A DNA stretch of 61,728 nucleotides, the filler included, from Rhabdomonas costata (taxonomy: Eukaryota), in assembly GCA_019059605.1 (NCBI GenBank). It is 25 parts of 25 records of this genome, joined end to end, with 100 filler letters (N's around TTAATTAATTAA, not from the genome) between each part and the next. Parts side by side here need not be neighbours in the genome. Positions count along the whole stretch, not along the records: positions 14,835 to 17,205 come from JAHMHO010003741.1; 24 more parts are not named here. One strand, given 5' to 3'. The notes under the pieces were generated by a model. It ran no database searches and was not told the origin of the DNA. It saw only the letters and a list, made by a program, of their open reading frames with translations. The position numbers and the translations under genes are program-made. Positions 15,523-61,728 of the stretch are shown in pieces. The stretch's first letter is position 1. Each line of letters starts with the position of its first letter.

Positions 15523-16950
15523 ATGTGCGACTGTTCAAAACCCTCGGCGGAGCAGCTGAAGAAGGCGGAGGGGCTGCCGTCGAATGGCCACAAGCTGGTG
15601 GTGAAGTACGGGCCCTACATGAACTGAGGAACAATGGCACATCGGTATGGCCCGGACTTCTGGGTGGACCTTGGATTGGGGTTTTACACTTCACTGATCT
15701 TTCCTTTCCCTTCTGTGACCTTTCTCTTCTTGGAAACCGCTGACGGTTCCGAGCTGCTTCCTCCAATCTTGTCGTGGTGGTTGGCCAGCGACTAAGTTTA
15801 AGTTAAGTCCGTCTCACCTCAAAAAGTGACACCTTACAAAGGTGTGCACTTAATCAGGCGTTTTCGAACTTAGAAGCTAAAAGGGGTGGCGAAAAAACTG
15901 GGTTCCAGTGCTTATCCGTCGCGGTTGTTATTCAAAGTGATTGTCAACCGCCCAATGTCACCTCTTTTTTTGTGGGGGCTTGATTTTTTTCTTTTGAAAG
16001 CTGCGAAAGATGCGAACACGTGGAACAAATAAACAAGCAAACAAGCGAACAAGCAAATAAACTAAAACCCCATCAACCAACCTGCGAACTCACTAACAGG
16101 CAGTTGTTTACAATGAGAGAGATGGCAGGAGGTCGGGGCTTTACGGGTCCATCTCCACCGGTGAAGAGTCCGGCTCATCGCCGGGAAATGGTGACACCCA
16201 CAGGTCTGTGAATAAGGTGCCGCTAGCTGCCGAGCCACCGCTTTGCGGAGTGCGACTGCGATGTCACCTCTTACTTTTGAAGTGACGTGGGCTATGCGCC
16301 ACAGACTATCAGCTGATCGGCTGATACCTACCGTTTGCAGGGATGCCCTCAGTAGAAACGGCGGTGGGAAAGTAAGCGAACGAGCGAATTCCGCCTTTGC
16401 CGAAGCAAGTGGGACAAACGATTGTGTGCAGTAACCCGGAGCTACTCCACTTGATTGGTCAGATGTCTGCTATTGTGTCTGCATATGCTTTGCCCGTGTC
16501 GAATCGCATACGCACCAATAGCATAATGTCCAAATGTCGATGTGCCGCCTCCCTGGCTCGTGGTTTATTGGCTTGCGCAGGCCCCAGAATCTTCTTCCAT
16601 TGAAGAAGCAGCTGGAGGCTGAGGGGTTCGATGTGCTGCTGGAGGAGATTGAGGAGGAGGATCTCATTGAGATCTTTATGGATGGCAAGTCCGTGCTGAA
16701 GGGGGGCGTGCGGTCGTACAACTCTTGGTCCCCCGGGGTGACCAAGAAGACCGTGGAAAAGCTGAAGGGCCTGGCCGAGCCCAAGAAGCCCGAGGGCGAG
16801 GACGGTGAGAAGCCCAAGAAGGAGGAGGAGAAGAAGCCTGAAAAGCCTGAGGAGAAGAAGCCTGAAGAGAAGAAGGCGGTCAAGGCTGAGGAGAAGAAGC
16901 CTGAGAAGGAGGCCGAGAAGCCCGCGGCGAAGGCGGAAGAGAAGGAGTAA
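15523..16950 (+). CDS. UPF0728 (C10orf53-like) protein with an in-frame TGA (candidate selenocysteine) and a K/E/P-rich tail; exons 15523-15644 and 16581-16950
   Basis: Spliced: KLVVKYGPYMN*GTMAHR|PQNLLPLKKQLEAEGFDVLLEEIEEEDLIEIFMDGKSV aligns without gaps to the UPF0728 pattern VRYGPYxSCGxVEHRTxRLxGLQAVLxxxGHxVxLExIxDxNxVELxVNGExV as I recall it. The phase-2 GTATGG...GCAG intron keeps the frame. Confidence 0.85.
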
Positions 16951-17309
16951 GCAAGCTTTTTTCGGCCCTCGCTTCGAGTGGAGGTTCGCATTCTCTGGCG
17001 ACCTTTTGGGTGCCAGGGAGGACTTTGAACCTCACCATGCCCTCGTAACGCACCCCTCCCTCCCCAATCTCTCCGTTCTGCTCTCTCCCCAATACCACGC
17101 ACCCCAATGGCCCGTTTTTATAAACCGTGGAAAATTAGGACTCATACTCCTACAGTCTGAGACTGTTGCGGCAAAGAACCAGAACCGAAAGCCATAGACC
17201 CAACANNNNNNNNNNNNNNNNNNNNNNNNNNNNNNNNNNNNNNNNNNNNTTAATTAATTAANNNNNNNNNNNNNNNNNNNNNNNNNNNNNNNNNNNNNNN
17301 NNNNNTGTT

Positions 17310-37143: not shown

Positions 37144-37310
37144 TTTGTCCCTGTTAAACCGCCAAGCCGCACAGGAAGGGAAACCAAAGTCCAAATAGCA
37201 ACTGGGTTCGGTCCGGAGAATTTGTGCAGCCGCATGCAGAATACGCACCTACTGGGTGAAACCGCCTGTGTTATTGAAGGTCTGGCATTTTAAGGTTTAA
37301 CAGGGACAAA
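37144..37310. repeat. 167-bp segment bounded by perfect 17-bp inverted repeats (MITE-like)
   Basis: TTTGTCCCTGTTAAACC at 37144-37160 and GGTTTAACAGGGACAAA at 37294-37310. Confidence 0.8.
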
Positions 37311-37475
37311 AGACACACCTTCTAACGTCAAATGTACGTACTCTGAAACCGTGCATTGCCTGCAAGGACAAAATCCAAGGCTCTTCTCACCCTTACGGCA
37401 CTTATTTCGTCCTTCCTCCTTCCACTCATGCACTCGAAAAAAGTAAAACGATTCTAATTTGCTTTTCTTTCCCAG

Positions 37476-38336
37476 CTTTGCAAACTGCCAAAATAAAGGC
37501 CGGCTTTGTTGAGCACCGCACGGAGGGAATGCAGAGCGCGATCGCTGAGGCGGCCTCGTTGTGCACGCGACGGCGCAACCCCGAGCTTTGTCCGGCCCAC
37601 CTCGCGGCGGAGATGCTGGCGGACGGCCAGGCGCTTCCCTCTAGGGTGCTGGCCCGAGTCCACGCGGACCTCGCGGCGGTGAAGGCCGGGCTGGAGACGA
37701 CGATGGACAGGTTCCCCTCGCAGGACCCGCCGGCAAAGCCCACGCCCAGCGGCACTCTGCTGAAGGTTGGAAAGCTGACTTGGGTTAGAGAGGAGGGAAG
37801 TGAAACAAACTTTGGGATCACTTGACTGAAGGTACAAAACAGGAGCACTGGCTCACATTTTCAAGTTTTGCAGACATCAATATCGGACCAAGCTTTTGTT
37901 GTGAGTATGTTTGTTGCACCTTCGTGTACTGGAAAGATAGAATAGCTTTGCTACAATGTCATGTGCAGGTTTTGTTTCTACTGAAGACGTTCCCTTTTGC
38001 TCTTTGTTTCGGGTGAGACGAAATAGCAACACCACAGAAAAAAATAGAGCTGGACTCGGGACAGGGATACCAGCGAAGGTGAAAGGACGGGTATTGCAGC
38101 GTTTCGAGAACAATGACCCCAGGCCTGCTTCCGCACTCCCTTCATGGGCACAAACCACGGTGATTGTTTTTTCCGAACAGGTCTTCAACAAGGTGACAAA
38201 GCTTCAGAAGAAGTTTGGGGACAGCTTTGTGGCGCTGGACACGTGCCTGCTTGCGCTGTTGGAGGAGCGGGAACGGGAACCGGCTGACGCGGTAGAAGTG
38301 CGAGGAGGCCATCACGGATCCGGGGGAAACCACAAG
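37476..38336 (+). pseudogene. ClpB/Hsp100 N-terminal (Clp repeat) domain, 2 exons (37476-37765, 38181-38336), degenerate
   Basis: TEGMQSAIAEA...PAHLA...RFPSQDP...|VFNK...QKKFGDSFVALDTCLLALLE. The expected LTRxKCEEAI segment lies in another frame and contains TAG (38293-38295). Confidence 0.75.
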
Positions 38337-60960: not shown

Positions 60961-61067
60961 CAAACCACCATACCGTCATGCGCAAATCCAGGGTGTGAAG
61001 TTGCAAGTGGTGGACGCCACATATGAAACAGGAAGCAATAGCTCACCAGCTTGGAAAGTGTCCATAC

Positions 61068-61294
61068 TTCACGAAAGCGTTTGCAGATATCCCAACAGAG
61101 AACGTGGTCCAGTTCAGAAATCTCCTGAATCCCAGCTGCTGGGCCACGTCGTCGCTGATCAGAACAGGTACGCACTGGCAGCTCACGGCGAAGTAGATAC
61201 GGCTGGTGGTGGGCGTGTCCCCGGCTGGGCACAGGCAGAACTGTGAGCGGGCGCATTGCTCCGCGCTCCATTTCCACAGGTTCCGGAAGCCCGG
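61068..61294 (-). CDS. Exostosin/GT47 glycosyltransferase exon (probable 1-nt frameshift near 61250)
   Basis: SQFCLCPAGDTPTTSRIYFAVSCQCVPVLISD...LNWTTFSV is the GT47 signature. AACAG acceptor and GTATGG donor. Confidence 0.85.
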
Positions 61295-61728
61295 CTGTTT
61301 GCCGGCGCACGGAACGGGCGTGAGTACGGGGAGGGGGACGAGGAAAGATTGATGACTCAAGACAGCAAAATTGTCGGTTTTTCATTCAAGGGTGGAGCAG
61401 TTGCTTGGGTTGTTGAAAAAAACGGACGCCCCAGCATCCCATTGCTAGTATGTCACAGTTATGGGCGAGCAGAGGCATATGCCAGCCAGTTCAGCTCGTT
61501 TGCATGGGGAGACAGCCCTGTTCACTCTCCAGCCTCGTCCAAATGTGTGCAAAACGAATGACAAGACCCCCTCCCTCACACACACACACAAAGAAATGCA
61601 GGCAAAAAACAGCAAGGTACCGGAGGAGCAGGTGCTCCAATTGTCAAGTTCAGGCTAGAAAAGTGCAGCACAGCCCCGGTAAGATTTGTCAGCCTGAGCA
61701 ATGTCGATGTCGATGGCAACACACCACC

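Follow-up and report, generated by a model that had tools for sequence, protein, structure and literature searches.

An in-frame TGA in a UPF0728/C10orf53 gene of the euglenid Rhabdomonas costata as a candidate selenocysteine codon

We analysed a stretch of 61,728 nt (the window) from the draft genome of Rhabdomonas costata (assembly GCA_019059605.1), in which one contig carries a gene that, judged from its sequence, is the euglenid orthologue of UPF0728/C10orf53. The reading frame of this gene is interrupted by a single TGA, at codon 35, and we think it rather likely that this UGA encodes selenocysteine (Sec). This reading is supported by the position of the TGA, by homology on both of its sides, by exons that are intact and codon-biased, and by the expression and splicing of the gene. 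It is further supported by a stop that is apparently present in two sequence versions of the gene and by the recurrence of the TGA in an unrelated lineage.

A UPF0728 gene interrupted by TGA

The gene starts with an ATG at 15523-15525 and ends with a TAA at 16948-16950, on the + strand of the contig at 14835-17205 (sequence reading and scripted translation of the exons; Table 1). Once spliced, the frame comprises 163 sense positions, including the TGA, and contains no other stop. The TGA stands in exon 1, in the context KLVVKYGPYMN-TGA-GTMAH, and the intron that follows has a 5' splice site CG/GTATGG at 15645 and a 3' splice site TTGCGCAG/G, ending at 16580. The 34 codons that precede the TGA have a GC content at third positions (GC3) of 0.88, close to the 0.82 of exon 2, whereas the two remaining frames of this segment reach 0.53 and 0.41 and the in-frame sequence ahead of the ATG 0.39. 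This bias indicates that the segment before the TGA is, or very recently was, translated.

Both exons match the Pfam profile of UPF0728 (PF15092). Residues 24-40 of exon 1 correspond to profile positions 6-22 (11.9 bits, with the TGA read as Cys) and residues 3-42 of exon 2 to profile positions 26-65 (21.4 bits), and the two matches are in register over the splice. The TGA falls on profile position 17, so the similarity runs for 48 profile positions beyond it. In the alignment with the mouse protein (PDB 9D2F, chain 9d2f_V), both sequences have a YGPY motif after the N-terminal strand. The initial annotation of the stretch had assigned the gene to UPF0728/C10orf53, had placed the in-frame TGA at codon 35 inside a conserved N-terminal motif and had described homology on both of its sides; the profile matches bear out all three statements, and the annotated ATG, TGA, intron and TAA were reproduced at the same coordinates.

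The gene is expressed and spliced. A protein search with the translation of exon 2 retrieved P0003 (eukprot RCo036851), with 100% identity over the 62 residues searched; RCo identifiers denote transcriptome-derived proteins of R. costata, a heterotrophic euglenid (PMC8219788). P0003 itself matches UPF0728 at profile positions 21-65 (27.4 bits, cut-off 27). It reads MAHR/PQNLLPLKKQ... across the junction, i.e., the same join of exon 1 to exon 2 as predicted, and the intron is therefore independently confirmed by RNA data. Its N-terminus is Met38, encoded by the first ATG downstream of the TGA. The simplest reading of this start is that the mRNA carries the stop too, because a TGC or TGT in the transcript would open the frame from Met1 and P0003 would then not begin at Met38; the TGA is thus probably present in the mRNA as well. 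The contig and P0003 differ at a single residue of 126, a Val in the former and an Ala in the latter, within the tail. Since they are not identical, two sequence versions appear to have the stop in common. The mismatch may itself reflect an allele, a paralogue or an error.

Few close relatives of the gene were found. The protein search with the core of exon 2 gave four candidates, among which only P0003 and P0004 are family members, and a phmmer search of 1.84 billion representatives with the same core gave five matches, the genuine ones being again P0003 and P0004. We rejected P0005, P0006 and P0007 as relatives: they are long proteins that reach significance only through two to seven separate stretches, and we take all three to be repeat artefacts, judging from P0006, the one inspected, which is a tandem-repeat protein without a UPF0728 match in Pfam. 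P0004 is 77% identical to the R. costata sequence over the exon 2 core and starts with MPDPTCR. This start looks like read-through of the end of an intron (with an acceptor of the type ...tgcag/G), and P0004 is thus uninformative about the TGA column. No other euglenid orthologue was found in the protein searches or in the search of representatives. Against the PDB, the exon 1 peptide gave no match by sequence, and a profile built from an alignment (A1) retrieved 9d2f_V at E 0.82, amid unrelated chains. A locus search of metagenomes with the same alignment yielded 587 pattern matches, none of which was confirmed.

The window is made of 25 contigs of about 2.37 kb, ordered by length and joined by 24 spacers of the form N...TTAATTAATTAA...N. 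These contigs are not neighbours in the genome, and the adjoining genes are therefore uninformative about the UPF0728 gene. The insert TTAATTAATTAA contains a stop in all six frames, and the spacers are found at 2418, 4891, 7364 ... 59304.

Table 1. Features of the UPF0728 gene and its contig, with positions counted along the window.
Feature	Position	Strand	Description
Exon 1	15523..15644	+	Start codon, 23-residue N-terminal extension, first strand and YGPY motif of the UPF0728 domain
In-frame TGA, candidate selenocysteine codon	15625..15627	+	Codon 35, Pfam UPF0728 profile position 17
GT-AG intron	15645..16580	+	Conventional, 936 nt, phase 2 within the Arg41 codon; junction agrees with P0003
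Exon 2	16581..16950	+	Remaining UPF0728 domain, K/E/P-rich tail of about 60 low-complexity residues, TAA stop
GTC (Val) codon	16879..16881	+	Ala in P0003 (..KKAVKAEE.. in the contig, ..KKAAKAEE.. in P0003)
3' untranslated region (UTR)	16951..17205	+	255 nt, up to the contig end; no SECIS (selenocysteine insertion sequence) detected
Stable hairpin	16978..17036	+	Helix, asymmetric internal loop, 9-bp helix, small apical loop

A second UPF0728 sequence with TGA

The initial annotation had proposed looking for orthologues with TGA at the same column, and a second UPF0728 sequence of this kind was found. A degenerate DNA pattern (YGPY-xx-TGA-G-xxx-H-R) gave eight matches in metagenome contigs and 10 in prokaryote genomes (596 billion bases). 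One of them, L002 (contig VFQP010094152.1, 1,052 nt), reads ...EFSVRISYGPYSA-TGA-GYVAHRTQPIRNLMA to the contig end, and its 40-residue peptide matches UPF0728 at profile positions 6-31 with 28.4 bits, above the Pfam cut-off. As controls, we tested 13 of the 17 other pattern matches against UPF0728 in the same way (the set leaves out L008 and L018, which are duplicates of L001, as well as L010, which ran off the locus, and L016, which has stops within the motif). Five controls obtained a score (15.6, 15.1, 15.0, 12.8 and 11.2 bits), confined to the motif forced by the pattern (profile positions 9-25), and the remaining eight had no UPF0728 match. The excess score of L002 comes from nine unforced residues past the pattern (+8.0 bits) and from the residues ahead of YGPY (+3.9 bits); its portion before the TGA has no UPF0728 match when taken alone. 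The sole PDB match of L002 is the mouse UPF0728 chain 9d2f_V (E 0.15). We conclude that L002 is a genuine UPF0728 N-terminus, with homology running through a TGA at the same column. Around the TGA, 26 of 48 bases are identical between L002 and the R. costata gene, which indicates that they belong to separate lineages.

The motif frame of L002 (51% GC) is open for 188 codons upstream, without an in-frame TAA or TAG. We do not take this as a sign of a long N-terminal extension: the upstream GC3 (0.45) does not exceed that of the other frames, and the segment contains no Atlas-recognised family. An ATG at 877 is preceded by ttttcag, which resembles a splice acceptor, and may be nearer the true start; an upstream frame at 2-388 ends in TAG. 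Used as protein queries, the frame and the 40-residue peptide retrieved only P0008, a frame called on the same contig. Four of the controls (L004 834-871, L006 4394-4431, L007 591-628 and L009 4109-4146) are prokaryotic contigs, one labelled Candidatus Sulfotelmatobacter, with a common conserved stretch that matches the pattern by chance in a non-coding frame.

Selenocysteine and its alternatives

A selenoprotein in eukaryotes requires a SECIS in the 3' UTR of its mRNA. In the R. costata gene, the UGA of codon 35 would be decoded as Sec in the loop YGPYMN-U-G that links the first strand to the first helix, through the usual eukaryotic route of tRNA-Sec, eEFSec and SBP2 directed by such an element, which would have to lie past the 255 nt of UTR on the contig. 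The Sec machinery is present, together with three selenoproteins, in kinetoplastids, which are the sister group within Euglenozoa (PMC12153298, PMC4561486). Like the kinetoplastid SelK, SelT and SelTryp, the R. costata gene has an in-frame UGA in an expressed and otherwise intact gene that is conserved on both sides, and the UGA stands at a Cys-favouring column where it recurs in a second lineage. Unlike them, it has no SECIS in the UTR seen here. It also differs from known selenoproteins because its protein has no CxxU or UxxC pair (a Tyr stands three places before the TGA) and because the known role of UPF0728 is structural, as a subunit of the spoke, and not that of an oxidoreductase.

Several observations weigh against selenocysteine. 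Rfam found no SECIS at the gathering score or at E<=10 on the contig, nor at E<=5 over the whole window. The 255 nt of 3' UTR contain no ATGA or GTGA, only a TTGA at 17026 and a CTGA at 17158, and neither of these is associated with a SECIS-like helix. The word stem 'seleno' is absent from the accessible text of the R. costata paper (PMC8219788) and of a comparative euglenozoan paper. The TGA column has only a mild preference for Cys. The exon 1 peptide matches UPF0728 when the TGA is read as Cys, with no match reported for Trp, Arg, Gly or X, and the 40-residue peptide of L002 scores 28.4 bits with Cys and 25.4 with Trp (24.5 with Cys and 21.6 with X in the longer frame). As the gain is just about 3 bits over Trp or X, Cys is enriched at this column yet not dominant. 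In the sequence alignment, mouse 9d2f_V has Val at the column, so the residue is dispensable for the role in building the spoke, and the searches returned no Cys-form homologue, giving only P0003, P0004, P0008 and repeat artefacts. The TGA is one base away from TGC or TGT, and a protein initiated at Met38 is exactly what a nonsense allele would yield. The weight of L002 is itself bounded: the search was conditioned on TGA, so that L002 could be a non-Sec TGA that arose by chance among Cys-form genes; the contig ends 47 nt past the TGA, before any UTR; and its organism may use another genetic code. Finally, the assembly is highly fragmented (143,763 contigs, N50 1,194 bp, 51.6% GC) and has 10-20x coverage (PMC8219788).

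A stable hairpin lies 28 nt past the stop codon (Table 1). The fold of 16975-17040 has an energy of -29.5 kcal/mol (z = -3.32), and two of 200 shuffles were as stable. We rejected it as an unusual SECIS: the AUGA/GA quartet is missing, no AUGA stands 5' of its internal loop, and an unpaired AA is lacking. No tRNA genes were found in the window.

How else could this codon have arisen or be read? A nonsense change from TGY to TGA, fixed or recent, would stop translation after 34 codons; the outcome would be either a protein restarted at Met38 that lacks both the YGPY motif and the first strand or a young transcribed pseudogene. Such a change is a single step from a Cys codon and fits with the start of the sole recorded protein (P0003), with the lack of a SECIS in the available UTR and with the Val tolerated in mouse; we consider it the main rival, which is unlikely on balance but deserves to be taken seriously. 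Against it, the gene is otherwise free of lesions, its two exons are open with a strong codon bias that extends to the 34 codons ahead of the TGA, the intron is spliced, and the contig and the transcript appear to share the stop though they differ elsewhere. Loss of the first strand would also break the sheet of a 90-residue domain, and the same-column TGA of L002, an unrelated UPF0728 gene, would imply two independent hits on one codon, which is unlikely. A sequencing or assembly error, or a minor allele, would instead mean that the true codon is TGC or TGT, in an ordinary Cys-form UPF0728. The low coverage and fragmentation of the assembly and the residue at which the contig and P0003 already differ are compatible with this, but with TGY in the transcript the predicted protein would not begin at Met38, the DNA and the RNA come from separate libraries, and the same TGA is found in another organism (L002). 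We thus regard an error as improbable.

The UGA could also be decoded in another way, by near-cognate read-through (Trp, Cys or Arg) or in a lineage where UGA is a sense codon. There is a precedent in Blastocrithidia, a euglenozoan that reads UGA as Trp (PMC12153298), and the host of L002 could have a code of its own. In R. costata, however, where gene prediction was not run on the genome, 39,456 proteins were predicted with the standard code, and the accessible text of the paper reports UGA reassignment for mitochondria only (PMC8219788). TGA also acts as an ordinary stop elsewhere in the window, as the initial annotation had stated: on another contig, a GT47 exostosin fragment at 61046-61381 (- strand; Pfam 57 bits, profile positions 221-285 of 293) ends at a TGA seven residues past profile position 285, at the expected C-terminus. 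With Trp the profile score is 3 bits lower than with Cys, and L002, by its GC content and its lack of in-frame TAA and TAG, is unlike the ciliates with variant codes. We give this explanation very little credence. An open frame at 37301-37822 (+ strand) also ends in TGA and has a weak match to Clp_N (18.3 bits, cut-off 20.7).

The selenocysteine reading, which the initial annotation had put forward, is therefore changed in both directions: it is strengthened by L002 and weakened by the slight preference for Cys and by the Val of mouse. The 'conserved Cys' on which it was built is favoured by the profile, but its conservation was overstated. The proposed check for a SECIS gave none within the 255 nt of 3' UTR that precede the contig end.

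Fold, radial spoke 3 and meaning of the finding

The AlphaFold model of P0003 (pLDDT 65.8) shows, at residues 8-69, a helix, three strands, a short helix and a helix, followed by a disordered tail; it lacks the first strand, which is encoded by exon 1. When this model was compared with 48,161 chains using VIA-align, 9d2f_V ranked fourth (Z 5.1, rmsd 2.5 A, 66 aligned residues), as one of six chains with Z>=5, where it is tied with unrelated small alpha/beta domains. Foldseek found no PDB match at E<=0.001; 9d2f_V was at rank 26 (E 0.78), yet with the best probability (0.69) and the best TMt (0.51) of the list. On this model, exon 1 would supply the first strand, and the TGA would lie in the loop that leads from it to the first helix. 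The R. costata gene and mouse UPF0728 have the YGPY motif in common, and P0003 exceeds the Pfam cut-off. They differ at the TGA column, which holds Val in mouse. The R. costata gene also has an N-terminal extension of 23 residues that begins with MCDC, a K/E/P-rich tail, and a motif that is one residue shorter between the Gly and the His-Arg. A chain of the Trypanosoma brucei 96-nm axonemal repeat (PDB 9e5c, chain 6u) is a weak match to the P0003 model (Z 3.9, 49 of 153 residues aligned) and might correspond to the spoke subunit in kinetoplastids, with no sequence similarity detected.

In thioredoxin-fold selenoproteins, e.g., SelW, the redox motif lies in the loop that joins the first strand to the helix after it, and the Rdx family has a thioredoxin-fold layout in which the first strand is followed by CxxC or CxxU. 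The elements predicted for the UPF0728 protein (strand, helix, three strands, helix), with the candidate Sec between the first strand and the helix, come in an order that resembles that of the Rdx family (SelW/SelT/SelH-like). The ESM Atlas feature search placed an Rdx cluster at rank 5 (score 0.82, in the noise range of the tool), and the SelW-related chain 2fa8_A ranked 15th of the 48,161 chains (Z 4.2, rmsd 2.9 A, 61 aligned, residues 15-86 of 86), also in the noise range. Unlike Rdx, the protein has no CxxC or CxxU, and in Y-M-N-TGA a Tyr takes the place of the first Cys. Neither exon nor L002 has a Pfam match to Rdx (PF10262) at E<=10. Given this and the lack of a CxxU, a fold similar to Rdx/SelW is a lead and not a claim.

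Radial spoke 3 of mouse respiratory cilia has C10ORF53 (UPF0728), a protein of 10 kDa, as a subunit of its distal stalk; the neighbours that this subunit touches are the N-terminal domain of MDH1B, CFAP91, AKAP14, and the docking domains of PRKAR2A and CATIP (bioRxiv 10.1101/2025.05.19.654877). This spoke also contains malate dehydrogenases and adenylate kinases and is described by the authors as a 'metabolic and regulatory hub' (bioRxiv 10.1101/2025.05.19.654877). By analogy with mouse, we infer that the euglenid protein is located in the flagellum, at radial spoke 3. Residue 35 might then be a redox-sensitive or metal-binding site on the stalk of the spoke, not a purely structural one. A broader and more speculative proposal is that UPF0728/C10orf53 could be an overlooked selenoprotein family, with Sec in at least two lineages, Cys in others, and loss in mammals. 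The protein would possibly have a degenerate SelW-like fold, with its Sec or Cys sensing the redox state at the stalk of radial spoke 3, by the pair of malate dehydrogenases, and coupling ciliary beating to that state. We put this forward tentatively, as an idea that we consider doubtful in its full extent.

UPF0728/C10orf53 has only recently been placed in a structure, as a small subunit without assigned chemistry (bioRxiv 10.1101/2025.05.19.654877). The literature searched, which left out most subscription journals, contains no report of a Sec form of the family, as the initial annotation had supposed (co-mentions are incidental gene lists), and describes no axonemal selenoprotein and no euglenid selenoproteome. 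If the TGA were a mere nonsense change, the finding would be ordinary. If it encodes Sec, it would reveal a new selenoprotein family, produced by a known recoding mechanism, within the regulatory complex of radial spoke 3, and would add a selenoprotein family in euglenids. It would also mark one loop residue as chemically important and point to a specific candidate for the redox control of ciliary motility, which has long been discussed.

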